Positions 11,869 to 63,247 of a stretch of 64,000 bases of DNA are shown one piece after another (position 1 is the first letter of the stretch; every line of letters begins with the position of its first letter). This stretch comes from Parcubacteria group bacterium GW2011_GWA2_42_14. Its GTDB lineage: Bacteria; Patescibacteriota; Minisyncoccia; Sungbacterales; GWA2-42-14. Below the pieces are notes generated by a model, which saw only the letters and a list, made by a program, of their open reading frames with translations, was not told the origin of the DNA and searched no databases. The translations under genes and the position numbers were made by a program. The stretch covers positions 72,958 through 136,957 of the forward strand of contig LCCV01000001.1 in the NCBI GenBank assembly GCA_000998135.1, written 5' to 3'.

Positions 11869-11869
11869 T

Positions 11870-17417: not shown

Positions 17418-17699
17418 TTATCTTCGATAAAGATTTTTATACGCCTTATCCCTTCTGTCAATATCGTAAAGAACAATCTCTTCTTTTTTGTAGTCAACCC
17501 AAAAGAACAATCGCCAATCTCCAATCCTAATTTTATGCAATCCTCTAAGGTCTGGCGGTAAATTTCCCATCGGGGCGCCGATGGTTTCTGGATTTAGCGC
17601 CAACTGATCAAGTTTTTCCGCAACTCTTGCCTTATCACCTTGAGTGAGCTTAGAAAAAGGACGCTCAAATGCGAAATGATGCCGGATGCTATAAGCCAT
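17418..17699 (-). CDS. RelE/ParE-family type II toxin
   Basis: KIRIGDWRLFFWVDYKKEEIVLYDIDRRDKAY, the classic RelE/ParE C-terminus. Confidence 0.75.
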   Translation of the reverse strand: MAYSIRHHFAFERPFSKLTQGDKARVAEKLDQLALNPETIGAPMGNLPPDLRGLHKIRIGDWRLFFWVDYKKEEIVLYDIDRRDKAYKNLYRR

Positions 17700-21891: not shown

Positions 21892-21907
21892 GTATTGACT
21901 GACTTTA

Positions 21908-21953
21908 GCAACACTCGGTGTTGCTTACTATAAGCAACACCGAGTGTTGCTAA
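21908..21953. repeat. Two tandem copies of the palindrome agcaacactcggtgttgct. A third copy (agcaacactcagtgttg) lies at 10096-10112. A terminator hairpin (aaccgcctattggcggtt) follows.
   Basis: Seen directly at gene 3' ends. Confidence 0.6.
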
Positions 21954-22065
21954 AACAAAACCGCCTATTGGCGGTTTACTACTGCGGACAATTAAATGTT
22001 ATGCAACGTAATATTATAGTGCTGAAGCCAGACGGCCTCCGCGGCCTCACCTGACGCAATAACGG

Positions 22066-23391: not shown

Positions 23392-23466
23392 TCAACCAAC
23401 AACCGACAACCCACAACTAACAACACATGTTGTAAGTTGTAAGTTGTAAGTTGTAAGTTACAAGGG

Positions 23467-23961
23467 TTGGCTTGGTGGGACCAATTAACTGAATTTTTAT
23501 ACAGGTCAAATCCGGGCAAGGAACCGGCCCCGCCTTCCAGTCCTCAAAATCTAATGGAAGCGGTCAGGCGCGTCTTTATAACAGAGGCCATTGACTGGCT
23601 TTATTTCGCCCTTTCTTTTTTTACTCAATTTTATTTCTGGTCAATCGCTTTTTTATTTTTTTCAGGCAGAGGTGGATATTATTTTATTTCAACCAAACTC
23701 TTAGGAGCTATTTCCGAACCATACTTGGGGGCCGTGGGTATTTACGTAATTTTAAAAGAAATCAGAAAAAGAAAAATAGCGCGGGAATCGCGCCATTACG
23801 GAGAAATATATGTGTGGCTATGGCTGATTTTGCTTCTTAGCAGTTCCTCTCTTGTATTGCTTACTAAAAATTTTCATTTTGATACTATTATGAGATTGAT
23901 TATAACCAACAGCTTGGCTTCGTTAGTAATTTATATTGCGGGAAAAATACATAGGCCATAA
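23467..23961 (+). CDS. Membrane protein, hypothetical
   Basis: Three to four hydrophobic helices. Confidence 0.4.
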   Translation: MAWWDQLTEFLYRSNPGKEPAPPSSPQNLMEAVRRVFITEAIDWLYFALSFFTQFYFWSIAFLFFSGRGGYYFISTKLLGAISEPYLGAVGIYVILKEIRKRKIARESRHYGEIYVWLWLILLLSSSSLVLLTKNFHFDTIMRLIITNSLASLVIYIAGKIHRP

Positions 23962-32509: not shown

Positions 32510-32728
32510 TTAGAGACATGATAGCAAGCCCCTCAAGCCGACACCGCCCTTTTTAATCTTAGTAAAGTCAATAACCGTCTCCCACAACCCAACATCATCG
32601 TCGGGCGGAGAAAGCTTAAATACGGGCCTTGAACGGCGCATAACGATAAAAGATTTCCCTTTTTGAACCTCGGAAATATAAATATCCGCATTTTCCCGAA
32701 GCTCTTTTAATCCAATAAGATTTCCCAT
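32510..32728 (-). CDS. Phd/YefM-family antitoxin
   Basis: LKELRENADIYISEVQKGKSFIVMRRSRPVFKL. Confidence 0.7.
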   Translation of the reverse strand: MGNLIGLKELRENADIYISEVQKGKSFIVMRRSRPVFKLSPPDDDVGLWETVIDFTKIKKGGVGLRGLLSCL

Positions 32729-32831: not shown

Positions 32832-33308
32832 CTACGTGTGTTTATCCGCCACCGTTGAGGCCCCGAATGAGTTCGGTTTGATTACCGCTTCAAAACCGTA
32901 TCCCTTTACCATTCCCACGACCGTATCAATCAATTCTCTGGTAGGCCCGTTTTCTCCCACATCAATATGCACCTGATTATCCCAAAAAGCTTCATCTCCA
33001 AGGCGGTCACGAAGCCGAGAGCGCACTTCCTGCGCCAAAGTTATGGAATTCATGGTTTCGGCATAAATTCTGTCGCGAAGGGTCAAAAAAACTTTGGGCT
33101 CGGCTTTAGTCCAAAAATGAATGGCTCCGTTCCCAACGCGCCAAACCGTAACCGCGGTAACCAACTCAACCGGACTTGAAGAAGCCGAATCCGAACCGAT
33201 TATAATATGGTACCACTTGCCGGGTTCGGCTTTTACAAATTCAATTACTTCGGTGATGACTTCATCGAGAGTAAGTATTCCTTTTGATTGACTATAAAAA
33301 TGTGACAA
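32832..33308 (-). CDS. YkuK-family (DUF458) RNase-H-like protein
   Basis: IIIGSDS motif; 158 aa, typical size. Confidence 0.5.
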   Translation of the reverse strand: MSHFYSQSKGILTLDEVITEVIEFVKAEPGKWYHIIIGSDSASSSPVELVTAVTVWRVGNGAIHFWTKAEPKVFLTLRDRIYAETMNSITLAQEVRSRLRDRLGDEAFWDNQVHIDVGENGPTRELIDTVVGMVKGYGFEAVIKPNSFGASTVADKHT

Positions 33309-33419
33309 GTAAACCGATGCAAATATACTAATGAATACTAATGATACAAATAATCATACGAATAACGGATTTGTATAGTTATTCGTATAATTCGTATGCA
33401 TTTGTATATTGGTATCGCA

Positions 33420-34241
33420 TTAAAATAATGAAGCTTGCAAATCCTGCGGGGCTTTGTAAAACTCATTTATTGGCTCGGCCGCGAGAATTCCTTCCATTTT
33501 GAATTTGCGAAGGCCTTGTCGAAGGTGGCAATACGCGGAAATTTCTTTACCGTTTATTCCATAAATATCTATCTTCCTTTTTTTCTTAAAATCCTCGCCC
33601 TTGGAGGCCTGCCTGGAAACATATTCAATGAAAAGCCGCTGGCGGTTCTTAAAAGCATTTTCAATGGTATTAAACAAAGAAAGTTCCGGCATTTTCTGCC
33701 AATTTACCGCAACCGCCCTTTTTTGTTTTTCATACAATGATTCAAAAAGAAGGTGGCCATGTTTTTTTCCGTATTCATACAGGTCGCGGGTCAATTCAAC
33801 ATCTTTCAAACAATATTTTTTTATATCGTCAATTCTGCCTTCTTTAAACCATTGAAGAGCTTGCAAGCCATCGGCGGATTTTTTCGCGCCAAGCGTTGCT
33901 CCGGCTAAACTTTGCAAAGACAAACGGTGGCCCAATTTTGTCGTAACATCTTCAAAAATATCAAGGGTCGGAAGCAAAGCAATATTTACATTTTTAAAAT
34001 ACGGCTGAAGCACCTGATAATCAAAACTTTTAGTGTTAAAACCTATTAAAAGTTCGGCATTCTCAATAGCTTCTTCAAACTGCGGAATTTCTCGCTCCTC
34101 ATACGCCTGAAATTTAGCGGTTTCATAAAAATAAGCGCCCACAACCGAGACGCCAAGAGCGCTAACATTATTCCTTCCCCCGACTTCATCAAATGATTTT
34201 TTTGTCTCTACGTCAAATACTATCTCTTTCATAATTTCCAC
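33420..34241 (-). CDS. DEDD-type 3'-5' exonuclease (DnaQ/PolB-exonuclease-like, YprB/COG3359-like) with a C-terminal extension
   Basis: Exo I IVFDVET; Exo II GFNTKSFDYQVL; Exo III YCLKDV. Confidence 0.6.
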   Translation of the reverse strand: MEIMKEIVFDVETKKSFDEVGGRNNVSALGVSVVGAYFYETAKFQAYEEREIPQFEEAIENAELLIGFNTKSFDYQVLQPYFKNVNIALLPTLDIFEDVTTKLGHRLSLQSLAGATLGAKKSADGLQALQWFKEGRIDDIKKYCLKDVELTRDLYEYGKKHGHLLFESLYEKQKRAVAVNWQKMPELSLFNTIENAFKNRQRLFIEYVSRQASKGEDFKKKRKIDIYGINGKEISAYCHLRQGLRKFKMEGILAAEPINEFYKAPQDLQASLF

Positions 34242-35142: not shown

Positions 35143-35568
35143 TTAATACCCATAGAGCAAATAATATTCAAGCGACCAAGAGCCCGAACCCCAAAACAAA
35201 AGTGCCAGTGCTGAAGCAAAATAAATCATATCAAGTTCCCATCCCTTGCCGTCTTTGAGAATATATGGCTCTTTGCCCCATTTAATTTTGGTCAATATAA
35301 CTAAAAATTGTATACAAACGGCCAAAGCCGCAAGCTCGGTTAAAAAACCGACAGCTATCATAATTCCTCCGACAAATTCGGTAAGACCTACGGGCCACGC
35401 CCAAAACCATCCGGGCTTGAACCCAAGCGTTTCCAGCCATCCGGAGAACTGCTCCTTCATCTTGAAAAGCTTGGGATAGCCGTGATAAATAAGGGCAATA
35501 CCTAAAGCAAGGCGCAAAACCAGGGGCGCCCAATCAGGGTCAATGGTGAATAAAAGAGAGGTTAACAT
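35143..35568 (-). CDS. DoxX-family membrane protein
   Basis: LVLRLALGIALIYHGYPKLF DoxX signature. Confidence 0.7.
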   Translation of the reverse strand: MLTSLLFTIDPDWAPLVLRLALGIALIYHGYPKLFKMKEQFSGWLETLGFKPGWFWAWPVGLTEFVGGIMIAVGFLTELAALAVCIQFLVILTKIKWGKEPYILKDGKGWELDMIYFASALALLFWGSGSWSLEYYLLYGY

Positions 35569-35857
35569 GAATCTTGAATCTTGAATCCTAAAACATAATT
35601 AATTTTTAACTATGTTTCATGATAAATGATTCATGGTTTATTGTTTTTATTATACTTCTCCCCGGCATTACCAACAACATTTTCTTATTAAGTTTTTTTT
35701 CCGGCTTTTTCAATTCTTCTTTTTGCCTCTTCAATATGGGTCTTTACCCATAAATCTTTGGTTTTTTTCTCCCGCTTCCTTTTAATCTCTCCGGGGTTTT
35801 TGGGATATTCTTTGGATTTTTCGCCCGTGAAAATATCCAATTGTTCAAATTTTTCTT

Positions 35858-43138: not shown

Positions 43139-43268
43139 TATTATTTAATCCTGAAACATGAATCATATAACATGCTATTAAATACAGATTATATGTTTCA
43201 AGTTTCAAGATACAGGTTTCAACCCCAATGATAACACAATATAAAAAAAGAAACAAAAGGAGCTGCCA

Positions 43269-43697: not shown

Positions 43698-44547
43698 GGC
43701 AACCTTCTTTTATCAAAAGAGCTTTAAGTTGAGCGTAGCAAAATAAAAAAATTTGTCAACCCCGTTAGAAGTCCGGCAGAGCACAAATTTTTGCAAGACA
43801 ATAAAAAGCAAAGTATCTCGCGCCTTACGCCTTCATTAAACAATAGCACAACTTGGGCTTCTGATAAGGCCGGGGGCATAATCATGAACACTTACCAATT
43901 TAAACATAAATATCACGAATATTATTCGTGATATTTATAGGGTATTCGCGTATATTAATATCGCTAATCAAACCTTTCCTCCGCAATATGCCTTTTTATT
44001 TCCAAAGCCAGCATTTTTACGTGCTTTTCATCATCCCGTTCAAGAGTTAACCAGAGAATTGAACAATGTTTACAGCCCTTCGACACTTTTTTATAATGAT
44101 TTTTGTATCTCCATAGCGCGTCGTTTTTTTCTGAAAGCGCGTGTACAAGGTCATGATTCCAGTCTTTCATCATTTTTTTAGAAGCTGATTTAACGCTGAT
44201 AAGTACGCGGATTTGACGCTAATTTTTTCAGCGTGTTTTCAGCGTACTCAATCAGCGTTGTTCTGCCTCTATAAATTTTTTAATAATAAACAGCTTATAA
44301 TCAAATAATAAAAAATTTACACGACAATAACAATGTGTTGTTTTATAAAAACTATCCACAGCCAACATTGACCATACAATACAGAAGCACTACCAATAGA
44401 ACTATGACATCGGGAAAGAAAATTCAAAACATAAAATCCTAAATCTTAATTTGAAACCCAAATATAGTATATTAAACAAGTTAAGTGAATTAAGTAAATT
44501 AAGCTTAACCCGCTTAACTCGCTTAATTAACTTAATAAGCTATAACA

Positions 44548-45690
44548 ATGGATTACAACCCAGCCATACAACTCCTTAAAAAAAGCCGCTTTATAGGAAT
44601 AGCGGTTTATGAAAGGGGGGGAGGAGATGAAATGGGTTCGGCTTTGGCTATTGCTTCCATCCTTAAAAAAGCCGGCAAAACCGTTAGTTTTCTCTTTTCC
44701 GGCGTTATTGAAGAAAAATGGAAAGCTTTATTCATGGCGCCAAACACCTTGCCAATGGCAGAACCGCAAAACAACAACGAACATATTCACGATTTTATTA
44801 TTGCCATAAACTCCAAAGAATCGCCGGTCGGAGAAATAAAATATGAAATGAAGCAAAATAATGAGCTTTTTATAATTCTTTCGCCTCAAAAAACATCCAT
44901 TAAAAAAGAACATGTTAAATTCATAGAGGACATTCCGGCTTATGATTGCCTCATATCCATTGGAATCGAGAGTCCGGAACATTTTGGCAAAGAATTCGAA
45001 GAAAATCCCCTTCTTTTTTATGAAAAACCAATTATCAACATTGATACTTCTCCCCGAAATGAACATTTCGGAGAAATTAATCTCGTAGATATAACCAAAA
45101 GCTCTAACGCTGAGATTACCTACGAACTATTTGATAATCTAGCCGGGGAAAAAATCGGACCGCTCGAGGCCACAAGAATCCTTGCCGGAATCATAGAAAA
45201 AACTGACAACTTCAAAAACCATAAAACAACGCCCCGTGTTCTTGAAATCGCTTCCTTCCTTATGGAAGCCGGGGCAGACAAAGAATCGATTATAAAAATA
45301 CTTTATAAAACAAGGCCTCTTAATTTGCTTCAGCTTTGGGGCAGAGCATCCATTCGTTCACGGTTTGACGCTCAAACAGGAATTCTATGGACATTTCTAC
45401 CTAAAGACGACTTTGAAAAAACAGGAACCAAAACCCAGGATATCCATTTTGTGATTGAGCACATGAAAGAGTATTTTAAAAGCCCGAAAATTCACGCGCT
45501 TCTTTTTGAAAACCCGAGGAAAAACCACGTCAGAGCAATTATAAAATCCGAACCGGAAACAATTAAAGAAGTCGCCGCCAAAGAGCCCGGCGAAGAAAAA
45601 AACGGCGTTTTGTTCCTTAAAAATGGTTTTACAAGTTTCCCGGAAGCGGAAAACTATGTTGATAACATTCTAAAGAGGTTGGAAACATAA
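44548..45690 (+). CDS. DHH-family (NrnA-like) phosphoesterase homolog with degenerate catalytic motifs
   Basis: N-terminal GD..GS motif retained, but the DHH motif reads IDTS. Probably inactive. Confidence 0.55.
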   Translation: MDYNPAIQLLKKSRFIGIAVYERGGGDEMGSALAIASILKKAGKTVSFLFSGVIEEKWKALFMAPNTLPMAEPQNNNEHIHDFIIAINSKESPVGEIKYEMKQNNELFIILSPQKTSIKKEHVKFIEDIPAYDCLISIGIESPEHFGKEFEENPLLFYEKPIINIDTSPRNEHFGEINLVDITKSSNAEITYELFDNLAGEKIGPLEATRILAGIIEKTDNFKNHKTTPRVLEIASFLMEAGADKESIIKILYKTRPLNLLQLWGRASIRSRFDAQTGILWTFLPKDDFEKTGTKTQDIHFVIEHMKEYFKSPKIHALLFENPRKNHVRAIIKSEPETIKEVAAKEPGEEKNGVLFLKNGFTSFPEAENYVDNILKRLET

Positions 45691-45799
45691 AATGGTATAA
45701 TAAAAGCGACCCCAATATACAAATTACACTCGAATGGCTCGAATAAACTAAACCGGTATTAGAGTCATTCGGGTGAATTAGAGTATTAGAGTCGCCCTT

Positions 45800-47461
45800 A
45801 TGGTAACTTTTGAAGAATCAAAACAACAAAAAAAACTGGGGGAAATCAGAAAAAAAGAAGAAGAAGATACGATAAAAATTATCGCAACCAAATACAAACT
45901 GCCCTATCAAAATCTTCTTACGATTCCCGTTGACATCGATGCTTTAAGAATCGTACCCATAGAAGACGCTAAGGCGGGAGGACTTGCCGTGGTGCAGCGC
46001 GTAGGCAAAAATCTCCAGATTGCGGTAAGAAACCCGACTAAAAACGAAACTAAAAAAATTTTGGAAGACCTGACGCGCCAGCGCTTCACTTATACTCTTT
46101 TTATGGTTTCCGGACAAGGACTGGAACATGCATGGGAAATGTATAAACAGATTCCAAAAGAGCTTGTGGTTATCGAGGGGGAAATAAAAATTTCCGAAGC
46201 AAAAATAGAAGAATTCGAAAAAAACATCCGGTCATTTGAGGCCATCAGCAAACTTCTTGAATACGTTTCGGAAAAATCAATTACCGAAGCACTGGAAATC
46301 ATTATCGGAGGATCATTAGCTATTGATGCTTCCGACGTACACGTCGAGCCCCAGCCGGAAGGGGCGCGGCTCCGCTATCGCCTTGACGGAACATTGCACG
46401 ACCTGACAATTATCACCAAGACCATGTATAAATTTATTCTGTCAAGGATTAAGCTCACTTCCGGCCTTAAAATCAACGTACATAACCAGGGACAGGACGG
46501 ACGATTTACCATAAAAATGCGGGAAGCAGAAGTGGAAGTTCGCACCTCCACCCTGCCCGGACCTTACGGAGAAAATATCGTTCTTAGAATTCTGAACCCG
46601 AAAACCATTTCGCTTGAACTCGAAAATCTCGGCATGCAGCCCTGGGTTGAAGAACAAATGGCCGAAGAGATTGCCAAGCCAAACGGAATGATTTTAACCA
46701 CCGGCCCCACCGGCTCTGGCAAAACCACAACGCTTTACGCCTTCTTAAAAAAAGTTCACAACCCGGAAATCAAAATCATAACGCTCGAAGACCCGATTGA
46801 GTATCACCTAAAAGGCGTCGAGCAAACACAAATTGACGCCAAGCGCGGATATGACTTCGCCTCCGGGTTGCGCTCAATTCTGCGACAAGACCCTGACGTA
46901 ATACTTTTAGGAGAGATACGGGATATTGAAACGGCGGAAACTTCAATGCACGCGGCACTTACCGGACACTTGGTATTTTCCACCATACACACGAACAACG
47001 CCGCAGGAACAATACCGCGCCTTATTGACATAGGCGTAAGACCAAATATCATTGCCCCGGCCATAAATGTTGTTATGGCCCAACGACTTCTCCGGAAACT
47101 TTGCGTCGCCTGCAAAAAAGAACATTCGCTTAGCGCGGCAGAACTAAAATTGACCAAGGAAGAAATAGAAAATCTCCCAGAAAATATTAAAAAACCGGAC
47201 ATTAAAAGCGCGAAAATTTATGAACCGAGCATCGCTGGATGCGAACGATGCCGAAATACTGGCTATAAGGGCCGTATCGGCGTTTTTGAGATATTTTTAA
47301 TAAACGACAGCGTCGAGGGATTAATATTAGCTTCTCCTTCAGTAAGCGAAATTAAAAAAGCCATGTTTGACCAAGGACAAATCACCATAAAACAAGACGG
47401 GACATTGAAAGTATTGGCGGGAATAACGGATTTTGAGGAACTGAAGAAAGTAGTCGGATAA
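45800..47461 (+). CDS. GspE/PilB-family type II/IV secretion ATPase
   Basis: Walker A TTGPTGSGKTT; the Asp/His boxes; C-terminal tetracysteine (CVACKK...CERCRNTGYKGRIGVFE). Confidence 0.85.
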   Translation: MVTFEESKQQKKLGEIRKKEEEDTIKIIATKYKLPYQNLLTIPVDIDALRIVPIEDAKAGGLAVVQRVGKNLQIAVRNPTKNETKKILEDLTRQRFTYTLFMVSGQGLEHAWEMYKQIPKELVVIEGEIKISEAKIEEFEKNIRSFEAISKLLEYVSEKSITEALEIIIGGSLAIDASDVHVEPQPEGARLRYRLDGTLHDLTIITKTMYKFILSRIKLTSGLKINVHNQGQDGRFTIKMREAEVEVRTSTLPGPYGENIVLRILNPKTISLELENLGMQPWVEEQMAEEIAKPNGMILTTGPTGSGKTTTLYAFLKKVHNPEIKIITLEDPIEYHLKGVEQTQIDAKRGYDFASGLRSILRQDPDVILLGEIRDIETAETSMHAALTGHLVFSTIHTNNAAGTIPRLIDIGVRPNIIAPAINVVMAQRLLRKLCVACKKEHSLSAAELKLTKEEIENLPENIKKPDIKSAKIYEPSIAGCERCRNTGYKGRIGVFEIFLINDSVEGLILASPSVSEIKKAMFDQGQITIKQDGTLKVLAGITDFEELKKVVG

Positions 47462-47562
47462 TCGCTAATCAGTCGCGAATTACTTCGCGAATGCCTGTGG
47501 CGAGCTTGTCGAACCATTCGCGAAAAAAATTCGAGATTGATTAGAGATATAAAAAATCGCCT

Positions 47563-47713
47563 CCTAAAGCTGTGGGCAATTACTCCGGTTTGGGAACGCG
47601 GAGGTCAGGATTTTAGCGTGAAATAAACCAGTCGTAACCGGTTTACCCAACGTTGAAAAACCCCCATTAAGGCTAAAAGGTATTTAAAACCTTAATTGCC
47701 CACAGCCTTAGGA
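47563..47713. repeat. ~150-bp element bounded by 18-bp inverted repeats (cctaaagctgtgggcaatt...aattgcccacagccttagg)
   Basis: Seen directly. Intergenic, between pilB and ruvB. Confidence 0.5.
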
Positions 47714-47964
47714 GACGAGTTTATTAGACGCCATGTTAGACGCCCTTTTGGCGTTATAATGGCGTATGAAATTCCCCAATTAGGGATTTCTGGCGTACCA
47801 ATTGGCTTCTATCAAATAGAAAGAGGCCCTCCCCGGCCCCCCCTTATAACGCTTTAAAATTGCTATTGTGGTATGATTATAGCAAAGTCATTATTTAATG
47901 TCAATAGCCGCCATAACTTACAACCTATAACGCTAAAATGTTGTTGGTGGTTGGTTGTTGATAA

Positions 47965-48975
47965 TTGGTTATGATAACCGCCCCCAAGCAAAAAAATGAA
48001 GACAAAAATCTTGATTTAACCCTTCGCCCCCAGAAGTGGGATGAATATATTGGCCAAAAAAATATCAAGGACAATTTAAAAATTCTGATACAGGCCGCTG
48101 CGCAAAGGGGCCAGCCGATTGAACATGTCCTTTTATACGGTCCGGCCGGACTCGGGAAAACATCGCTTGCCCATTTAATCGCGCGGGAAATGAATACCAA
48201 CATCCGGGTAACATCCGGCCCCGCGATTGAACGCGTAGGAGATCTTGCTTCCATCCTTACCAATCTTATGCCCAACGACATTTTATTCGTTGATGAGGCA
48301 CATCGGCTTAATAAAATGATTGAGGAGGTGCTTTATCCGGCAATGGAATCACGCACTCTTGATATAATCATCGGCAAAGGGCCTTCGGCTAAAACAATCC
48401 AGCTTGACCTTCCGCCGTTTACCCTTATTGCGGCAACGACAAGAATAGGACTTTTATCGGGCCCGCTTCGTTCCAGATTCGGAGGAATATTCCGCCTGGA
48501 TTTTTACAAGGAAGAGGATATCCAAAAAATTCTTGAGCGCTCCGCTTCCCTTCTTAGAATTACGCTTGAGCCGGAGGCAAAAAAATTAATTGCCAAATCC
48601 TCCAGATTCACTCCACGGGTCGCCAACCGCCTTTTAAAAAGAGTGCGCGATTGGGCAGAAGTTCACGGCACCGGCGTTATTACGACTGAAGCCGCGAATA
48701 AAGCCTTGGCCTTACTCGAGATTGACGAACAAGGGCTTGAGCCCACGGACAGAAAAATAATTGACGCCATCATTAAAAAGTTCCATGGAGGACCGGTAGG
48801 ACTTCAGGCCCTGGCCGCGGCCACATCCGAAGAGGAAGAAACCATTATTGAGGTTTATGAACCGTATTTAATGCAAATCGGCTTTATAGAAAGAACCCCG
48901 CGGGGACGAGTCGCAACCCATATGGCCTATAACCACTTAGGACTTGTGCCGCCGGCGCAAGGACAGTTAGTATAA
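47965..48975 (+). CDS. ruvB: Holliday junction DNA helicase RuvB
   Basis: AAA+ motifs [11 protein letters not shown] and [10 protein letters not shown]; sensor and winged-helix C-terminus. Confidence 0.95.
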
Positions 48976-49104
48976 AAAATCCAAAATCCAAAGCACTGAA
49001 TCCCGAATAATATCAAAATCACAATAACCGAAAGGCGGGTTTTGAATTTTGAAAATTGGAGCTTATTTGGGATTTGGGATTTTGAAATTGGGATTTTAAC
49101 AAAA

Positions 49105-49299: not shown

Positions 49300-49469
49300 G
49301 CAATGATGCCAATGCAATGCGAATTTAATGCGAACCTGGCGAATTGCGAATAACTATTCTTCAAACCGAGCTGAGAAGTTCACCTATTCGATAAACTCAG
49401 AACAGATATTAATGTAAAGTTCTCGACAAGCTCGAACAGTATTCGTAATTTGTAGATTAGCATCACAGC

Positions 49470-50003
49470 ATGATTAAACTAAATCCTGATGAAAAAATTT
49501 TAATGGTTATACGGCGTCACTGGTTCGTTATGGTCGGACCGGTGGTTCTTTTGATTATTTTGCTTGTTTTTCCTTCTATTTTTTTAACTACAGTTCCCTA
49601 TTTTTATCCGGCCCTAAACAATAGTCCAGAAATTCAACCAATGATTAATTTTTCTCTGGCTCTTTACATTTTAACCGTTATCCTGTATCTATTTATCTGG
49701 TGGTCTGACTATTATCTTGATATCTGGATAATAACCAATAAAAGATTGGTTGATATTGAACAAAAAGGGCTATTCAACAGGCACATTTCCGAAATGAATG
49801 TAGAAAATATTCAAAACGTCACATTGCAAATTGAAGGTCTAATTCCGACACTTCTTAAATTCGGCAACCTGCTGGTGGAAACGGCCGGAGAGGGACAGTT
49901 TAAAATAAAAGACGCGCCGAATTTGTATGAGGCAAAAGATTTACTTTTGAGATTTTCAAACCACCATACCAACCAACAACCCACAACCAACAACCCACAA
50001 TAG
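49470..50003 (+). CDS. Bacterial PH-domain (YdbS/YdbT-like) membrane protein
   Basis: Two N-terminal transmembrane helices then a bPH_2-like region. The C-terminal tail (QQPTTNNPQ) is encoded by (caacc)-type repeats. Confidence 0.55.
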   Translation: MIKLNPDEKILMVIRRHWFVMVGPVVLLIILLVFPSIFLTTVPYFYPALNNSPEIQPMINFSLALYILTVILYLFIWWSDYYLDIWIITNKRLVDIEQKGLFNRHISEMNVENIQNVTLQIEGLIPTLLKFGNLLVETAGEGQFKIKDAPNLYEAKDLLLRFSNHHTNQQPTTNNPQ

Positions 50004-50043
50004 GTGTTATAAGTTATTAGTTGTAAGTTGTAAGTTATGAGGA

Positions 50044-50787
50044 ATGTCCGGACATTCTAAATGGGCGCAAATAAAACACAAAAAGGCCTTGACCGACGCC
50101 AAGAAGGGAAAGGCCTTTTCCAAAATATCCAGAATGATTACGGTCGCGGTAAAAGAAAAACAAAACCGCGACCCCTCGACCAATTCCAAATTAAGAACCG
50201 CTATTGAAAAAGCAAGATCTCTTGGTATGCCCGGAGAAAACGTGGAACGGGCAATGGCCAAAGGACTTGGCGAAGGAAAAGAAGGAGAAGGGCTCAAAGA
50301 AGTTTTGTATGAAGCTTTCGGCCCTGAGGGAACAGCATTGATAATTGCCGGCATTACCGACAACAAAAACAGGACAACCGCAGAAATAAAACACCTTCTT
50401 TCCGAACACGGCGGGCGCTTGTCCGAAAAAGGAAGCGTGGAGTGGATGTTTAACCATGTCGCGGCATTTGATTTTAACGCGAAGGACTTCTTAAAAACAG
50501 AAGAGGCTGAGCTTTTTCTAATTGATGCCGGAGCAGAAGACATTTCTAAAAACGATTCATTAATGACGGCTTACGTATCCCCGCAATCATCAGATATTTT
50601 TAGAAAAAAACTTGAGGCCAAATCCATAAAACCCAAAGAAGAATATTTTGACTATATGCCCAAAAACAAACTCTCTTTATTAAATGAGGAAACAAAGCAA
50701 AAGGTAATCGGCCTTATGGATGCCCTGGATGATAATGATGACGTGCAGGAGGTTTATACCAACATAGAGATAGAACATGAAACCTGA
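50044..50787 (+). CDS. yebC: YebC/PmpR-family transcriptional regulator
   Basis: MSGHSKWAQIKHKK N-terminus. Confidence 0.9.
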   Translation: MSGHSKWAQIKHKKALTDAKKGKAFSKISRMITVAVKEKQNRDPSTNSKLRTAIEKARSLGMPGENVERAMAKGLGEGKEGEGLKEVLYEAFGPEGTALIIAGITDNKNRTTAEIKHLLSEHGGRLSEKGSVEWMFNHVAAFDFNAKDFLKTEEAELFLIDAGAEDISKNDSLMTAYVSPQSSDIFRKKLEAKSIKPKEEYFDYMPKNKLSLLNEETKQKVIGLMDALDDNDDVQEVYTNIEIEHET

Positions 50788-50848
50788 ATCATGTAACATG
50801 ATAGTTAAAAATTGTGTTTCCTGGTTCATGATTTATGATTCATGATTC

Positions 50849-51328
50849 ATGATTATTTTAGGAGTTGACCCCGGAACCACTACTGTAGGTTACTGCCTCT
50901 TGCAAAAAAACGGCAGAGCTCTTAAATTGGTTGAAGCCGGCGCGATTAAAACGGTGCCCAAATCGGAACAAGCGGAAAAAATCCTTATAATCTCCAATAA
51001 ATTGAAGGAAATAATAGATATCCACAGGCCAAGTATTTTAGCTATTGAAAAGGTCTTCTTTTTTAAGAATAATAAGACAGCGATGTCGGTTGCCGAAGCC
51101 AAAGGAGCCATACTCTTGACAGCCAAAAATTTAGGCCTTAAAGTGTATGAATACACGCCCCTTGAAGTAAAAATGGCTCTAACCGGCTACGGAAGAGCGG
51201 ACAAAAAACAGGTTGAATATATGGTTAAAAACGTCCTTAAGCTCGAAACAGCGCCCAAACTTGATGACATAACCGACGCTATGGCCATAGCCATTACTTG
51301 CGCCAATAGTATTGCCAATTTGCAGTAA
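50849..51328 (+). CDS. ruvC: Crossover junction endodeoxyribonuclease RuvC
   Basis: MIILGVDPGTTTVGY; catalytic Asp/Glu pattern. Confidence 0.9.
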   Translation: MIILGVDPGTTTVGYCLLQKNGRALKLVEAGAIKTVPKSEQAEKILIISNKLKEIIDIHRPSILAIEKVFFFKNNKTAMSVAEAKGAILLTAKNLGLKVYEYTPLEVKMALTGYGRADKKQVEYMVKNVLKLETAPKLDDITDAMAIAITCANSIANLQ

Positions 51329-51687: not shown

Positions 51688-51756
51688 CAGATGAAACTAA
51701 TAAAATGCCCCTCCGCATGTATGCGGATGGGCATTTTAATTTGCTTATTTGGACAT

Positions 51757-55692: not shown

Positions 55693-55722
55693 ATAATTTT
55701 AAATCCCGCGAAAGCGGGATTT
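55693..55722. terminator. Terminator hairpin (aaatcccgcgaaagcgggattt + T-run), same motif family as 35011-35035
   Basis: Seen directly. Confidence 0.65.
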
Positions 55723-55746: not shown

Positions 55747-56847
55747 TCATAAATTCCTAATCGGCATTAACACATATATCAAAGATTCATCCGTTTTGGA
55801 GCGGAGAAGGGCAGGAGAAGATTCCCCGGAAACTCCAATAAAGATTTCTTCGTCTTGAATGGATTCCAGACCGTCCAAAAGATATCGGAAATTAAAACTC
55901 AAATTCACCGGCTTACCTGTAAATTTTTTCAATTTTATTTTAGAACTCATGGAGCCAAGTTCTGAATTGGAAGACTCAACTGTTAAAAATTCTCCTGAAA
56001 ATTTCAAAATAATATCATTAAGCTTGCTTGATAAAACAGAAGCGGCTCTTATTTTCTGAATCAATTCAGATTTTTCAATAAGCGCGGTTGATTCAAAATT
56101 TTTAGGAATAATTCCTGCGTACTCAGGAAAAATTCCATCAATCAGTCGAGATGTTATAACTTGATCCCCTACAATAAATACAACCTGATTGTCGGAATAA
56201 GTAATAATAACCTCATCTCCTTCCTCAAAAAATAATCTAGCTAGTTCTTCAACTGTTCTAACCGGAACCACAAAAGACGATTTAGTTTCATCGGAACTTG
56301 CCAAAGTTATTGTTTTTTCAGCAAGACGAAAGGTATCTGTTGCAACCAACTTTAACTTTTTTCCTTCAATTTTTAAAAGCACACCTGAAATTTCCGGTTT
56401 TAATTCTGAACGGGAAACAGCAGTAATAACACTTTTAATTCCGTCAACTAATAATAAAAACGCGGAATTTAATTTTTTACCGCCTTTTATTTTAGGAATA
56501 ATCGGAAAATCTTTGGAAGGATTACCATTTATGGTTATTTTTGAATTTTCGGAATTAATTAAAAGTATATTATTCTTTTCTTCAATGATAATGTTTTCTT
56601 CTTGAATGGTTTGAATTACTGTTGAAAGAATTTTTGCCGGAACAGTTATTATTCCTTCCTGAACAACTTTACAGGAAAAATCAGATTCTATGGCCATTTC
56701 AAGATTGGTGGCTATAATAGAGCATTTTTTTCCTTTTGCTTCAATTAACACATTTCCTAAAATAGGAAGATTAATATTTTTTCCGGTAAACCTTTCTGCT
56801 TGTATTACAATATTTTTAAAATTATTTCTTAAGGAAATTATTTTCAT
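55747..56847 (-). CDS. dnaN: DNA polymerase III beta sliding clamp
   Basis: Three-domain clamp, 366 aa, immediately downstream of dnaA. Confidence 0.9.
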   Translation of the reverse strand: MKIISLRNNFKNIVIQAERFTGKNINLPILGNVLIEAKGKKCSIIATNLEMAIESDFSCKVVQEGIITVPAKILSTVIQTIQEENIIIEEKNNILLINSENSKITINGNPSKDFPIIPKIKGGKKLNSAFLLLVDGIKSVITAVSRSELKPEISGVLLKIEGKKLKLVATDTFRLAEKTITLASSDETKSSFVVPVRTVEELARLFFEEGDEVIITYSDNQVVFIVGDQVITSRLIDGIFPEYAGIIPKNFESTALIEKSELIQKIRAASVLSSKLNDIILKFSGEFLTVESSNSELGSMSSKIKLKKFTGKPVNLSFNFRYLLDGLESIQDEEIFIGVSGESSPALLRSKTDESLIYVLMPIRNL

Positions 56848-57112
56848 TTTTTTAAAGCTATATTTTATATTTATATATTTAAACTATTATTGTTATTAGA
56901 TATTCAATTTTTGTTAATTAGTATAAAAATCATTTATTTATTTCATTTTTTGATTTTTTATCTTGTGTTTAAGATATAAAAGATATTGTTGATAACTTAT
57001 ATATAAATTTTTAACTTATTTTATATATATACATTTTACGGATTAAATTAATAAGTGTTGCTCAGGAGATTACCATGTTTTTACTATAGTGATTAACATA
57101 TTTATCAACATA
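56848..57112. promoter_or_regulatory. Putative chromosomal origin (oriC): an extremely AT-rich dnaA-dnaN spacer with DnaA-box-like 9-mers (tgttgataa at 56987-56995; ttatcaaca at 57102-57110)
   Basis: Classic dnaA-dnaN context, a ~110-bp run of nearly pure A/T (a DNA-unwinding-element candidate), and near-consensus TTATC[CA]ACA boxes. Another box-like TTATCCATA lies upstream of dnaA at ~58541. Confidence 0.5.
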
Positions 57113-58504
57113 TTACGAAGTATACATTTTTTCTTTTATAATTTTTATTTCTTCTTCTAAATCCAAATTAGATTTAATATTAGACAATATTTTTTTATAA
57201 GCATGAATGGCCGTAGTGTGGTCTTTTTTTCCTATTTTTTCTCCAATAAAAGGAAAAGAACATTTTAATTCTTCTCTTAAAAGATACATGGCTATTTGTC
57301 TTGGTTTCACGACTTCTTTTTTTCTTGATTTGTTCAGTATTTCTTTTTCGCTCAATTCATAAAAATCAGCCACGGTTTTAATGACTTTTTTAGGAGTGAC
57401 AAATTTTCTCGGAGCATAAATTATTTGGCTTATAATTTTTTTTACATACTCAAGTTCGGGTACGCAATTATTCATTTTTGCCGTAAGAACTATACGGTTT
57501 AGCGCTCCTTCTAATTCTCTGATGTTATTTTTTATAGTTCTGGCAATATAATCAAGAATATCTTCCGGAATTACTATGCCGGTTTTTTCCATTTTAATTT
57601 TAAGAATCGTCAGTTTGGTTTCATAATCAGGTTCTCCTATGTCCGCAATCATACCTCCTTCAAAACGAGATTTGAGCCTAGCTTCCAGTGTCGCGATTGC
57701 CGCCGGGGGTCGGTCTGAAGATATTATTATTTGTTTATTTTTTTCATATAACGCGTTAAAGGTATGGAAGAATTCTTCCTGCATTTTTTCCGTCCTGGCG
57801 ATGAATTGAATGTCATCCATTATTAAAAAATCATAAGCCCGATATTTTTCTTTTAATTGATTCATTTCCTGGTTTTTTAGGGCTTCCACTATTTCGCCCA
57901 TGAATTTTTCGGAAGAAACGTATTTTACTTTAGCTTTGGGATTCTGTTTTATTATTTCGTTTCCTATCGCTTGTATCAAGTGTGTTTTACCTAGTCCCAC
58001 TCCGCCATATAAAAAGAGCGGGTTATAAATTCCCGGCTTTATTACTATTGACTTTGCCGCAGCATGCGCCAGTTCGTTAAATGAGCCCACGATGAAAGAA
58101 TCAAAAGTATATTTGGGATTGAGGCTTGTTTCAGGGTTTATATTCAGGTCTTTAAGTTCGAATTCGGAAGAAAAAGATATGTCGTTTGCTGGTTTTACGG
58201 AAACCCTGGCAATTGTAGGCAAACCGTATTTGGTGTCGTTTTTTTGTGTTGCAAGCTGTTTTGTTCCGATTACGTAACTCACTTCTTTTACTTGGGAATT
58301 TATATTTCTAACAGCTCTTAATACGAATTTATTGTATTTATTTTCCAGCCATTCTTTTACAAATCCGTTAGGAACGGAAACAGAAACCCTATGGCCGTCC
58401 ATTTCAATTGCAGAAGTGTCTTTGAACCAAGTAAGAAAGGCCGCCCGGCTTATATTGAGTTCTATTTCGGCCAAAGCCGTTTTCCATAAATCATTAAGCT
58501 CCAT
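57113..58504 (-). CDS. dnaA: Chromosomal replication initiator DnaA
   Basis: AAA+ motifs GGVGLGKTHL and LIMDDIQF; C-terminal DnaA-box-binding domain. Confidence 0.95.
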   Translation of the reverse strand: MELNDLWKTALAEIELNISRAAFLTWFKDTSAIEMDGHRVSVSVPNGFVKEWLENKYNKFVLRAVRNINSQVKEVSYVIGTKQLATQKNDTKYGLPTIARVSVKPANDISFSSEFELKDLNINPETSLNPKYTFDSFIVGSFNELAHAAAKSIVIKPGIYNPLFLYGGVGLGKTHLIQAIGNEIIKQNPKAKVKYVSSEKFMGEIVEALKNQEMNQLKEKYRAYDFLIMDDIQFIARTEKMQEEFFHTFNALYEKNKQIIISSDRPPAAIATLEARLKSRFEGGMIADIGEPDYETKLTILKIKMEKTGIVIPEDILDYIARTIKNNIRELEGALNRIVLTAKMNNCVPELEYVKKIISQIIYAPRKFVTPKKVIKTVADFYELSEKEILNKSRKKEVVKPRQIAMYLLREELKCSFPFIGEKIGKKDHTTAIHAYKKILSNIKSNLDLEEEIKIIKEKMYTS

Positions 58505-58680
58505 AATCTCTAATCAATCTCTAATTTTTCCGCGAATTATCCATAATTCGCGATTATTTGAGATATCTTATTAACGGGTAATTCGAGATTTTCAAAACAC
58601 CTTTGTATTATAAATTGAATACGCAATACGGCAAAATTTCATAAACTGAATAATATGTTGAGAGACTGTTAATAACTCAA

Positions 58681-58760
58681 CCGACAACTTATAACCTACA
58701 ACCAATAACACGTTTCGCCGTTTAGCTGTTATGGGTTGTCAGTTGTCAGTTGTTAGTTTA
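58681..58760. repeat. Palindromic (acaac...)n / (gttgt...)n motif repeat flanking rpmH on the 5' side. A partner lies at 58910-58968, with family members at 23393-23465, 49961-50037, 47914-47972 and 5897-5940.
   Basis: The left half is tandem caac/acaac-type units and the right half is their reverse complement (gttgtaagttgtaag). Confidence 0.65.
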
Positions 58761-58770
58761 TATTATATGT

Positions 58771-58908
58771 ATGTCTATCACGTATCAGCCAAAAAAGAGA
58801 AAAAGAAAAAAGGTTCATGGATTTTTGAAAAGGATGGCCACGCCGACAGGAAGAAGGGTATTAAACCGGAGAAGGGGGAAAGGGAGAAAGAAGATTACTG
58901 TGGTATAA
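58771..58908 (+). CDS. rpmH: 50S ribosomal protein L34
   Basis: Manual translation gives [45 protein letters not shown] (compare E. coli [44 protein letters not shown]). The ORF track lists a different, overlapping frame (58731-58913). Confidence 0.85.
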
Positions 58909-58975
58909 ACTAACAACTAACAACTCACAACCAACAATGCGTGTTGTAAGTTATGGGTTGTAAGTTACGAAAAGT

Positions 58976-59671: not shown

Positions 59672-59765
59672 CTCAAATTTTGCACGCGAATGACTCGAAT
59701 ATTTATGGCGGGTTAGGTTGAGTTATTAGAATCATTCGGGTGTCATTTGTATATTAGAGTCGCTT

Positions 59766-60494: not shown

Positions 60495-60613
60495 TGCCAA
60501 TCTATAAATGAAATGTTAACTCTATAAATTATGAATTAGTTTTTCCTACAAATTACGAATTTTGCCGAATTACGAATTCGTAATTCGAATCCATTCATAA
60601 TTTATAGGATAAT

Positions 60614-61060: not shown

Positions 61061-61236
61061 AATTTTCAATAAATTATTAAATTTATAAATTTTCAAACAC
61101 ACCGCGCCTCGTAATTGAAAACTAAATCGATTAAACTGTTTTAAAATTTTTTGTCTTATTACGCCAGAAACTGAAGGTTTCGGCATTGCTTTTTGAGACT
61201 GTTGCCGAATGACCCTTTTCCATTTAATTGTAATTT

Positions 61237-61270
61237 AAAAGCCCGCATTAATATGCGGGCTTTTGTTTTA
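61237..61270. terminator. Bidirectional terminator (aaaagcccgcattaatatgcgggcttttg) between jag and the convergent TolB-like gene
   Basis: Seen directly. Confidence 0.7.
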
Positions 61271-61290: not shown

Positions 61291-62472
61291 TTACAGCTTT
61301 AATCTCCACAATGTTTCGTCGTTTTTATCCTGGAAGAACAAAAATTGGTTATCCTGTGAAAGAAAAAGGTTGAACGCGTCAAAATTTTTCTCAGTATATA
61401 CTTCTTTTATTGAAATATTTCCCGATTGGCTATTGGCGGTATCGATTTGAACAAACCGGTCCTGGAAGAAACCGGTTCCCATGTACCAGTCGTCCGGCAG
61501 AATTCCGAAAAGGGTTATATTTTTTGGGACGGCGCAAAAAATTGAGGAGCCGTCCTTTTTAAAGACGCATTTTTCCGGAAGAGTCTGGGTTTCTATTTCT
61601 TGCGAATCGCTTCCGTCAATTTTGGAAAAATAAAGTTTGAGGTTTTTGCCCGAAGAGTTCGTTCCGGCAAAAAGCATGTTTTGTGCGTCTGGTGAGGGAA
61701 GAATTGTTAACCCGTAACTTTCAGTGAATATTTTGTTGAAAGTTTTTTTTGTCCTGTCGTAATAGAATAAAATTCCCGGAGCAGCCCCTGAAGGGCGCGA
61801 TGCCAGAAGTATTTTATCTTTGCTTGTCCAAAAAATATTAAAGTCCGGAATTGGTGTTGCATAAACTACTGCCGGTTTCTGGGCTTTATCGTCGGTGATG
61901 GTCAGATTAAATGACTCTTTTTGGTTGATGAAGTAAGCAATTTCTTTGCCGTCCGGGGACCAGCCGGTTGTGGTAACGCTTGCGGGGAGGAAAATAACTC
62001 CGCTGGTTGCGGTTGAACTTATGAATCTTTTCGCGGTCCCGGATTCAATATAGGTCAAAATTGCCGCTTCTTTATCAGGATTTTGCCACAAGGCCTCCAG
62101 TAGGCCGAGTATGGTGATGGTAGAAAGTTTCTCCTCATTTTTGCCGTCAAGCCCGACTGCTTCAAGGTTTCCGCCGGCCTTAGCGTAATAAAGAATTTTG
62201 GTTCCGTCTTGGGAAAGCGCCGGCGAAATAATCGGTTTGGAAACTATTTGAATAAGTTTTTGCTCTCTTTCCAATTCTTCTCTGGTTTTGGGCAGTTTAG
62301 GGGGTGTAGGCGGTGTTATGGTTATGCGGCGGGTTCCCGGTATGGGCAGTCCTCCGAATAAATCATTTATAGCTTTATCTCCCCCGCCGTAGAAATAATA
62401 ATAAGCCAGTCCTCCGAGGACAAGGAGGCCGGTTATGGCGCTGGTAATTTTGATGAGTTTTTTTCTTTCCAT
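61291..62472 (-). CDS. TolB-like periplasmic beta-propeller (PD40 repeats) protein
   Basis: N-terminal transmembrane or signal segment; repeated DGxK(I/E)... PD40 motifs (DGTKILYY, SPDGKEIAYF). Confidence 0.65.
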   Translation of the reverse strand: MERKKLIKITSAITGLLVLGGLAYYYFYGGGDKAINDLFGGLPIPGTRRITITPPTPPKLPKTREELEREQKLIQIVSKPIISPALSQDGTKILYYAKAGGNLEAVGLDGKNEEKLSTITILGLLEALWQNPDKEAAILTYIESGTAKRFISSTATSGVIFLPASVTTTGWSPDGKEIAYFINQKESFNLTITDDKAQKPAVVYATPIPDFNIFWTSKDKILLASRPSGAAPGILFYYDRTKKTFNKIFTESYGLTILPSPDAQNMLFAGTNSSGKNLKLYFSKIDGSDSQEIETQTLPEKCVFKKDGSSIFCAVPKNITLFGILPDDWYMGTGFFQDRFVQIDTANSQSGNISIKEVYTEKNFDAFNLFLSQDNQFLFFQDKNDETLWRLKL

Positions 62473-62603
62473 AGCTTTACGAATTACGAATTTTTACCTA
62501 GTCCGTTAAACGGGTTAGGACGAATTTAAGAATCGATATATTCTAACTTTAATATTCGTACATTCGTACTGATTAGTAATTCGTAAATATTTATTAATAC
62601 ATA

Positions 62604-63032
62604 TTAGGGTTTCAAATATTTACTTAAGTCTAGATTAGTAAATCCCTTGACCAAGTCCGGATTTATGGTATAAAGCAGAACATAAGAAAATGCCGCGAGC
62701 AAAAGGCCGTAAATGGCGTTTGAAATCCAGCCCTTGGCTTCTCCAAGTTTTGAAGGGTTGCCTGCGGCAACTATATAAAGAACTCCGCCGTAAACCATTG
62801 CTCCTAAAGCCGCAATTCCCACCAAGCCCAGAAGGTATTGGTAGAGATTGTCAAGATAGCCGGAGTAGCTTAGCGCCAAATACGGCGAGGCCGTTTGGGC
62901 CGTTGCTTCAACAACCACGCATTCTCCCTGGGTTTTGGTTGGGCAGGTGTTTTTGGCGTAAGAAATTTGTACCAACAGAACAGCTGACAAGATAAGTATG
63001 AGAAAAATTGTAATGTGTTTAAATATCTTCAT
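62604..63032 (-). CDS. Pilin-like / VirB2-TrbC-like small secreted two-helix membrane protein
   Basis: Signal peptide, Cys pair, two long hydrophobic helices (LGLVGIAALGAMVYGGVLYIVAAG). Confidence 0.4.
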   Translation of the reverse strand: MKIFKHITIFLILILSAVLLVQISYAKNTCPTKTQGECVVVEATAQTASPYLALSYSGYLDNLYQYLLGLVGIAALGAMVYGGVLYIVAAGNPSKLGEAKGWISNAIYGLLLAAFSYVLLYTINPDLVKGFTNLDLSKYLKP

Positions 63033-63247
63033 AATTTCTAATTAACCCAATTTCTAATTACCTGATAAAATACCGTAAGAATTTCTAATTGTCTAATTCA
63101 CCTAATTTCTAATAAAATAACCAAATTCCAAAATTTTAAATTAAGTATTTAAGAATTAGAAATTTTATTAGGTGAATTAGGTAATTAGGAATTAGGTGAA
63201 TTTTCATCATGGTTAATTAGAATAATAATTAGGTTTTTTTGGATTTT

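Follow-up and report, generated by a model that had tools for sequence, protein, structure and literature searches.

The sequence analyzed here, hereafter the window, is a 64-kb stretch of a Candidatus Sungbacteria genome (Patescibacteria, or candidate phyla radiation, CPR). In it, the ribosomal protein L34 gene rpmH (58771-58908, + strand) has an imperfect palindrome built from short tandem repeats on either side: one lies in the divergent dnaA-rpmH spacer and stops 12 nt short of the rpmH ATG, and the other fills the rpmH-rnpA spacer. Palindromes of the same construction occupy many other gene junctions of the window and are the subject of this analysis. They constitute a clade-wide, strictly extragenic and fast-evolving class that sits in stop-to-start junctions and is distinct from canonical terminators.

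The genome is streamlined, with a coding fraction of 85%. Its DnaA (57113-58504, minus strand) shares 80% identity with the DnaA of Candidatus Sungbacteria bacterium RIFCSPLOWO2_01_FULL_47_10, and the next-best matches come from Sungbacteria or Parcubacteria metagenome-assembled genomes throughout. A metagenome scan with DnaA for nearer relatives returned none above 75% identity, and an exact-protein look-up of L34 retrieved no record. Near dnaA, the genes run in the order T2SSE, ruvB, a small gene, bPH, yebC, ruvC, tyrS, pbp, dnaN and dnaA, followed across the divergent spacer by rpmH, rnpA, yidD, yidC and jag. This order is kept across dozens of related loci, which makes the orthologous spacers comparable. 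Loci of related genomes compared with the window carry L-numbers (L001, L003 and so on to L091), and clade-level counts pool the window with 80 of them. The sister species, L091, was located through RuvC homologues; its RuvC is 88% identical and its coding DNA about 80% identical to that of the window. A same-species set of ten independent assemblies (NCBI, ENA and JGI; 99.9-100% identity) covers five of the palindromes.

Spacers built from inverted heptamer arrays

Twenty-two window spacers are imperfect palindromes of 40-200 bp, in which tandem copies of a short unit, degenerate and mostly of period 7, form the left arm and their reverse complement forms the right arm. The curated list below comprises 1878 nt, or 2.9% of the window. 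Fold z scores compare the predicted RNA fold energy with dinucleotide shuffles on the strand shown, over the range given where it differs from the element.

58681-58758: ACAACNN/GTTGTNN palindrome, divergent dnaA-rpmH spacer, arms 58684-58710 and 58727-58753; fold -27.8 kcal/mol, z = -5.55 (+), -4.76 (-)
58908-58966: ACAAC palindrome filling the rpmH-rnpA spacer, arms 58908-58931 and 58943-58966; z = -2.2 (+), -3.9 (-)
23393-23465: ACAAC palindrome between a femAB-like gene and g23467; z = -4.9 (+, 23390-23468)
49961-50037: ACAAC palindrome between bPH and yebC; z = -0.95 (+), -5.9 (-) over 49955-50043, a good fold on the - strand only
47914-47972: weak ACAAC/GTTGNTG palindrome upstream of ruvB; z = -1.3 (+, 47905-47975)
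50776-50851: CATGAAA/TTCATGA palindrome between yebC and ruvC; z = -2.3 (+, 50770-50856)
15910-15974: CATGAAA palindrome between fpg and holA; z = -3.9 (+, 15900-15980)
43148-43222: CATGAAA-family palindrome between two minus-strand genes; z = -4.2 (+, 43140-43225)
7798-7836: short CATGAAA-family palindrome in a divergent spacer; z = -3.4 (+, 7790-7840)
11768-11868: AAATCCC/GGGATTT palindrome between tsaE and polA; weak, z = -1.7 (+, 11760-11870)
48976-49097: AAATCC/GGGATTT palindrome between ruvB and the small membrane-protein gene (start 49105); z = -4.2 (+, 48970-49100)
49300-49468: long imperfect AATGCGA-type palindrome between the small gene and bPH
14479-14540: GAATTAA/TAATTCN palindrome between polA and a response regulator gene; z = -2.4 (+, 14475-14545)
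15044-15100: ACGAATT-family palindrome between the response regulator gene and fpg; z = -5.6 (+, 15035-15105)
60541-60612: ACGAATT-family palindrome between yidC and jag; z = -5.1 (+, 60525-60613)
62476-62587: ACGAATT-family palindrome between two minus-strand genes; z = -3.4 (+, 62465-62605)
63037-63243: nested AATTTCT/ATTAGGN palindrome of about 200 nt between a pilin gene and g63248; z = -5.6 (+, 63033-63247)
33315-33417: palindrome with 45-bp arms and weak periodicity between two minus-strand genes; z = -4.2 (+, 33285-33425)
35567-35641: TGAATCT/ATTCATG palindrome upstream of a doxX-like gene
44463-44541: palindrome of TTAAG units (period about 9) that stops 6 nt upstream of g44548; z = -5.4 (+, 44455-44545)
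45722-45779: CTCGAAT-family palindrome, first of two copies
59683-59742: CTCGAAT-family palindrome, second copy, between yidD and yidC

The stems are AT-rich and their mismatches are periodic. In the palindromes flanking rpmH, for example, the predicted stems alternate between helices of 5 bp and small internal loops, which fall on the two variable positions of each unit.

We compared the window with twelve second-order Markov simulations of its sequence. It contains 45 hairpins against a simulated mean of about 12, 18 hairpins with periodic arms against 2.3, and 10 with period-7 arms against 0.17. The architecture described in the initial annotation, tandem units followed by their reverse complement, is thus real. 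The unit length of 5-9 nt given there narrows to a period that is overwhelmingly 7. Autocorrelation of intergenic DNA is maximal at lag 7 (0.32 versus 0.26 in coding sequence), 47 periodic-arm hairpins of the pooled loci fit a period of 7 best (at most 5 for each other period from 3 to 12), and 7 is also the modal period in Tandem Repeats Finder (TRF) output (228 arrays). Neighbouring TRF arrays of matching motif form 14 inverted pairs and no direct pairs. Nearly all loci cited in the initial annotation contain periodic-arm hairpins; the following two hold direct copies and no palindrome.

5897-5940, + strand: solitary direct ACAACNN array without an inverted partner, beside tRNA-Arg; minimum free energy 0
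3770-3850: direct AATTCGT copies only; z = -1.7

The tRNA-Arg(CCG) gene, on the minus strand, adjoins the solitary array (5824-5940). It alone passed the gathering score in an Rfam 15 scan of the whole window, which returned no family for the palindromes.

The two arms of an element also vary together. Among these elements, which were found by their complementarity, joint deviations from the arm consensus are complementary in 82 cases and not in 21, while a unit-permutation control gives 37.7 ± 5.7. Because unit variants are mirrored in this way, the palindrome is more than two independent arrays of complementary motifs; the arms may have been copied from each other, or their pairing may be maintained. 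Some elements combine one perfect and one degenerate arm. In the palindrome at 23393-23465, the right arm carries 4.4 perfect GTTGTAA copies (23429-23459, 100% identity) and the left arm is degenerate, and L025 offers another case. This pattern points to recent slippage within one arm.

Placement at stop-to-start junctions

The window has 71 gene junctions, of which 45 are co-directional, 13 divergent and 13 convergent, and 21 are occupied by a palindrome. This frequency, together with the recurrence of the form across the Sungbacteria clade, agrees with the initial description of the architecture as systematic. A test of enrichment at convergent and divergent junctions was proposed at the same time; occupied junctions number 18/45 co-directional, 3/13 divergent and 0/13 convergent (co-directional versus convergent, p = 0.005). 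None of the elements lies within a gene, and 18 of the 21 occupied junctions are co-directional.

A typical element begins within 30 nt of the upstream stop codon and ends within 40 nt of the downstream start codon, often filling the whole spacer; where the spacer is longer than the element, the element mostly abuts the downstream start codon. Stop codons often fall within the 5' arm, and start codons fall at or within the 3' arm. Both occur at yebC-ruvC, where the yebC TGA (50785-50787) is inside the second left-arm unit and the ruvC ATG (50849) is inside the last right-arm unit. At the same junction (50825-50854), the (NNNATGA)n repeat makes 5-codon mini-ORFs (open reading frames) in which each TGA overlaps the ATG two units on, and the last of these overlaps the ruvC start codon as ATGA.

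Convergent junctions instead contain ordinary GC-rich hairpins flanked by A and T runs.

51701-51738: canonical bidirectional terminator-like hairpin at the convergent ruvC-tyrS junction
21904-21954, 55701-55722 and 61236-61265: further canonical terminator-like hairpins at convergent junctions

A consensus terminator scan recovered 55701-55722 and 61236-61265. Among the palindromes, it found the - strand of 49980-50027 and no sense strand.

The palindromes also explain several irregular coding ends. The C-terminal tail of bPH (HHTNQQPTTNNPQ, up to the stop codon) is encoded by the left arm of the bPH-yebC palindrome. The N-terminal extension of polA, 18 codons long, results from reading through the right arm of the tsaE-polA palindrome, which ends 1 nt before the true start (MKYIIID, ATG at 11870). 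The true start of the small gene is at 49105, and the ORF extension upstream of it is spurious. All three cases, noted in the initial annotation as repeats reaching into genes, were traced to palindrome arms. Because the arrays often lack stop codons in one frame, they produce both false N-terminal extensions and lineage-specific C-terminal tails (bPH, YebC), and they degrade gene calling in metagenome-assembled CPR genomes. Period-7 arrays of a different setting lie in the uvrB coding sequence (CAACTTC x4.9 at 19281-19314 and TAGGGTT x4.9 at 19866-19899), where they would encode 7-residue peptide repeats.

Turnover at orthologous junctions

Heptamer palindromes occur often in the Sungbacteria clade and less often in other Parcubacteria. 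The yebC-ruvC spacer measures -1 to 20 nt in L005-L009, L012, L013, L019, L033 and L040. It is filled by a palindrome of CATGAAA units in the window, ACAAC in L003, AGAACTT in L017, GACAAGT in L021, AGCTAAA in L022 and AATTTTC in L031. The yidD-yidC, yidC-jag, bPH-yebC and ruvB-small gene spacers are also tight in many relatives and hold palindromes of other motifs elsewhere; over the five junctions compared, yebC-ruvC included, the tight spacers measure -4 to 20 nt. At ruvB-small gene, most relatives have 5-20 nt, versus the palindrome at 48976-49097 here. As these junctions are tight or differently filled in relatives, the palindromes are lineage-specific fillings, gained repeatedly, of formerly tight stop-start junctions. 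The initial annotation had anticipated that the motif would turn over while the palindromic form was kept, and the six different units at orthologous yebC-ruvC spacers show this pattern. The form itself recurs at orthologous spacers of the clade.

Replacement is already extensive between sister species. Of eight comparable elements, five are replaced in L091 and three are kept, namely the AAATCC element downstream of ruvB, the ACAAC element between rpmH and rnpA, and the dnaA-proximal copy of a dispersed repeat (family A, described below). The bPH-yebC junction of L091 has a period-10 palindrome in place of the ACAAC element of the window. By comparison, the five palindromes covered by the ten same-species assemblies show no indel and only two single-nucleotide polymorphisms (SNPs). 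The absence of any length change indicates that the palindromes are neither hypervariable nor assembly artefacts, and the two comparisons together indicate that turnover exceeds coding divergence but is slow on population time scales.

The conserved rpmH-rnpA element gives a hint of constraint on the cores. Between the window and L091, the ACAAC/GTTGT cores are nearly unchanged and the two inter-core positions differ, a contrast with p = 2e-7 in register and an estimated p of about 0.02 with the MAFFT register; because it depends on the register, we take it as a hint only. The L091 version of this palindrome also has a 34-nt loop insertion (13490-13525). A small GC-rich hairpin (AGCC TTCG GGCT) with TTT behind it lies in this insertion, and the heptamer palindrome thus encloses a terminator-like hairpin.

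Motif families and dispersed copies

The motifs of one genome include ACAAC, CATGAAA, ACGAATT, GAATTAA and AAATCCC. Most are AT-rich, and runs of three G are confined to the GGGATTT family. The initial annotation assigned a different motif to each locus; there are indeed many motifs per genome, but a few families recur. Counting any rotation and either strand, 9% of element pairs within a genome and 0.4% of pairs between genomes have an identical heptamer in common, a difference of about 24 times (permutation p < 2e-4); allowing one mismatch raises these values to 22% and 5.7%. Single-linkage clustering of the units collapses them into one cluster and is uninformative. No single core dominates.

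Copies of the ACAAC, CATGAAA and ACGAATT families have the unit alone in common and differ in loops, ends and lengths. End-to-end similarity is limited to two families. The two CTCGAAT copies have arms about 90% identical and unrelated loops, and family A has three copies in the window.

190-275, + strand: family A copy 1, dispersed palindromic repeat of about 100 nt (ATCTCTAATCAATC...GATTGATTAGNGAT)
47455-47550, - strand: family A copy 2, directly after a PilB/T2SSE-like gene
58505-58600, + strand: family A copy 3, directly upstream of dnaA, conserved in L091

Two of these three copies agree at about 88% of positions. The ends of family A are inverted repeats of 14 nt, and a clear target-site duplication was not seen. 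It also occurs at 3440-3550 and 13005-13100 of L091 and fills the yebC-ruvC spacer of L091 and L001. These dispersed copies show that some copying between loci occurs.

Strand symmetry, promoters and translation starts

Predicted folding does not distinguish the leading from the lagging strand (-23.8 versus -23.8 kcal/mol; 51 versus 46 mismatches). An advantage of the - strand as a general rule was considered and dropped, as it holds for three ACAAC elements only and there is no strand bias overall. The arms do have a polarity: 51 of 69 elements combine an A-rich 5' arm with a T-rich 3' arm (51 versus 18; p = 9e-5), and 175 of 242 other hairpins of these genomes have the same polarity.

Promoter-like sites are not enriched (61 versus 50.6 ± 6). 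The sequences upstream of start codons have no sharp -10 peak, and in this clade they seldom include Shine-Dalgarno-like motifs. A general promoter or leaderless reading was rejected for want of promoter enrichment and a -10 peak, and the rpmH case alone is suggestive. There (58736-58771), a TTGTCA inside the palindrome's right arm is followed, after a gap of 17 nt, by a TATATT that ends 6 nt before the rpmH ATG. Given this spacing, the rpmH mRNA may be leaderless or near-leaderless, with a promoter built partly from the repeat.

Origin and persistence of the palindromes

Our preferred and still tentative reading, at a probability of roughly 0.45, is that these are REP-like (repetitive extragenic palindromic) intercistronic palindromes with heptamer arms, a trait of Sungbacteria-type CPR genomes that would arise by slippage and inverted copying and be tolerated or used within operons. 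The comparison with REPs, already made in the initial annotation, holds in that the elements are extragenic, lie within gene strings and form genome-specific families. A short unit in a tight junction would be multiplied by replication slippage. Intrastrand template switching (inverted copying), selection for pairing or a combination of the two would create the opposite arm or preserve its complementarity, and arrays would occasionally be copied between loci. The 7-nt preference would fit this origin because it matches the known heptamer excess of prokaryotes, in which heptamers are the commonest long class of simple sequence repeats (SSRs) (PMC4679880, PMC4692102). As for persistence and function, which we infer only weakly, a self-folding insert may be the type of spacer that an operon junction tolerates, since the base of the hairpin would keep the upstream stop and the downstream start adjacent and isolate the two cistrons. 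Any effect would be that of a hairpin in a polycistronic mRNA, as for REPs (stability or coupling), rather than of an intrinsic terminator.

Several results weigh against this reading. In the pooled clade data, co-directional junctions exceed convergent ones only as raw percentages (4.0% versus 2.5%). Three window elements lie in divergent spacers, to which operon arguments do not apply. Signs of selection at the RNA level are lacking in the comparison of sense and antisense folds (-22.7 versus -23.8 kcal/mol; p = 0.39) and in mismatch types (20 G.U-type versus 28 A.C-type, no excess of G.U), and the sense strand of the bPH-yebC element folds no better than its shuffles. The mirrored-variant test carries an ascertainment bias toward complementarity. 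Finally, genome-specific families with copies of about 100 nt that are about 88% identical fit a mobile element at least as well.

Non-autonomous mobile palindromes, similar to the miniature transposable elements with inverted repeats known as MITEs, to REPs or to REPINs (REP doublets forming hairpins), moved by a transposase encoded elsewhere and with arms remodeled later by slippage, are an unlikely alternative but one to be taken seriously. They would account for the genome-specific families, the three family A copies and their presence at other junctions in L091 and L001, the similar CTCGAAT arms, the occurrence of another family at the same junction in the sister species, and the lack of strand asymmetry expected of a DNA-level element. 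Copies within the main heptamer families, however, share only the unit, a clear combination of terminal inverted repeats and target-site duplication was not seen, and no domain of a transposase, REP-associated tyrosine transposase (RAYT) or reverse transcriptase occurs among the roughly 70 scanned ORFs of the window. We consider it distinctly unlikely that the palindromes are a functionless by-product of lineage-specific slippage and fold-back synthesis, with a fold that is not selected. Complete strand symmetry, rapid replacement between sister species, the many relatives without a palindrome at the same junctions and the existence of solitary arrays such as 5897-5940 all suit such a by-product, but a genome that is 85% coding and presumably subject to a deletion bias nevertheless keeps 2.9% palindrome. 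The empty convergent junctions of the window, the arm polarity and the hint of conserved cores in the rpmH-rnpA element also argue against it.

The terminator function raised in the initial annotation fares worse. Intrinsic, possibly bidirectional AT-rich terminators without a T tract would explain the strong hairpins (z down to -7.4), folding on both strands and an A-rich 5'/T-rich 3' polarity like that of terminator-like hairpins. The elements are nevertheless absent from all 13 convergent junctions of the window, where canonical hairpins with T runs are found instead. They lie inside conserved strings (rpmH-rnpA-yidD-yidC-jag, yebC-ruvC) whose orthologous junctions overlap or measure 0-20 nt, they often include the upstream stop codon in the left arm, and three are in divergent spacers, all of which makes termination quite improbable. 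It is very improbable that the arrays are cis-regulatory sites read per heptamer by a single-strand-binding protein (e.g., a cold-shock-domain protein) that sets translation initiation downstream. The position next to downstream start codons, which extends to divergent cases (58758 to 58771 and 44541 to 44548), the rarity of Shine-Dalgarno-like motifs and the precedent of the TAACTGA repeats of Beggiatoaceae (PMC4679880) are in its favor, but the many unrelated motifs per genome make sequence-specific recognition unlikely, the inverted arrangement is left unexplained, and no sense-strand bias exists. Phase-variable contingency loci, which short tandem units near starts resemble, and an assembly artefact are hardly credible and are largely refuted by the ten assemblies, with no indel and two SNPs in five palindromes.

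A more radical proposal, which we regard as a long shot, is a self-propagating class of DNA without precedent, in which a clade-specific activity writes heptamers and their complement into stop-start junctions and the hairpins serve as operon punctuation. Such an activity could be a polymerase, a primase, a nuclease or a protein reading heptads as 5+2, and it could copy families without a conventional transposase. If so, hairpins would punctuate the operons of ultra-small genomes that make little use of Shine-Dalgarno motifs. CPR genomes are among the smallest and most gene-dense known, and yet about 3% of the window and about a third of its junctions are fast-evolving hairpin DNA. This is unexpected in a streamlined genome and demands an explanation, be it a function or a strong mechanism that generates such DNA. 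With empty junctions, fillings of other motifs, elements with one homogenized arm and dispersed copies, the clade offers a natural series for the birth of REP-like palindromes from simple repeats and for the 7-nt preference.

Comparison with known repeat systems

We found no description of such palindromes from CPR genomes in the literature that we searched. The inverted GGGAATC heptamer pairs of Xanthomonas are the closest precedent. Xanthomonas campestris and X. axonopodis carry intergenic GGGAATC arrays, perfect or heterogeneous as (GGGANTN)n (Rehm et al. 2015, PMC4692102). Each genome has 70-75 close pairs of arrays on opposite strands that could form a stem-loop or cruciform; between species, the arrays keep their position and type (single or inverted pair) but differ in length and sequence (PMC4692102). 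The window elements have the same 7-nt tandem arms, close opposite-strand pairing and intergenic location, and the GGGATTT/AAATCCC family fits (GGGANTN)n. Unlike the single G-rich motif of Xanthomonas, with its G-quadruplex potential, they use many AT-rich motifs, mostly without G tracts. They also differ in that the motif is replaced at orthologous junctions and in filling stop-to-start junctions of a streamlined CPR genome. Four points set the palindromes apart from the Xanthomonas pairs: the diversity of AT-rich motifs, their replacement at orthologous sites, the operon-type junctions and the CPR lineage.

REPs act as mRNA hairpins that influence stability and expression. Like REPs, bacterial interspersed mosaic elements (BIMEs) and REPINs (PMC3116915), the elements are extragenic imperfect palindromes that lie within gene strings and form genome-specific families. 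REPs are 20-40 nt long, follow one consensus and are tied to RAYTs (PMC3116915), whereas the palindromes described here have arms of 7-nt units, span 40-200 nt and fall into families, several of which share only the unit. No RAYT (Y1/HUH) is present among the roughly 70 ORFs of the window.

The short tandemly repeated repetitive (STRR) sequences of Calothrix and Nostoc are intergenic heptanucleotide tandem repeats. These and the GGGGAYT repeats of Nostoc PCC 7120 resemble the window arrays in being intergenic tandem heptamers of several families and strongly over-represented, but only a few Nostoc arrays form inverted pairs. In marine Beggiatoaceae, TAACTGA arrays are concentrated in intergenic DNA directly upstream of starts, and a post-transcriptional or translational role has been proposed (MacGregor 2015, PMC4679880). 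Those arrays consist of a single motif in direct orientation (one inverted among 170 sets) and lack a hairpin architecture. Rho-independent terminators are likewise stem-loops at gene boundaries, A-rich on the 5' side and T-rich on the 3' side; the palindromes differ from them in having no GC-rich stem or T tract, in being absent from the convergent junctions of the window and in overlapping stop and start codons. TIGR (tandem interspersed guide RNA) arrays, a repeat system found in CPR, were also considered. They alternate two 8-12-nt repeats with 9-nt spacers, with a unit of about 36 nt, beside a Nop-domain Tas gene (PMC12045711). We rejected this assignment, as the palindromes have units of 7 nt and inverted halves, they are dispersed over 21 junctions, and no Nop-domain protein is encoded among the roughly 70 scanned ORFs of the window.

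Other features of the window

The sign of the GC skew flips at about 57 kb, beside the AT-rich dnaN-dnaA spacer (56850-57110, GC about 0.29), and 27-nt tandem repeats lie at 56838-56904. We regard this spacer as the probable replication origin. Genes for two small ParE-like toxins are found at 1929-2174 and 17418-17699, and 32510-32728 gives a weak Phd/YefM-like antitoxin match.

A hairpin of about 165 nt (47556-47722; GCTGTGGGCAATTA ... TAATTGCCCACAGC) lies between the PilB-like gene and ruvB. It matches no Rfam family and is about 90% conserved in the sister species, in which the adjacent spacer elements are replaced. Upstream of it, a perfect TTGACA-17-TATAAT with an extended TG (47904-47876, minus strand) is conserved too. 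On these grounds, the hairpin is a candidate for an unannotated small RNA gene.

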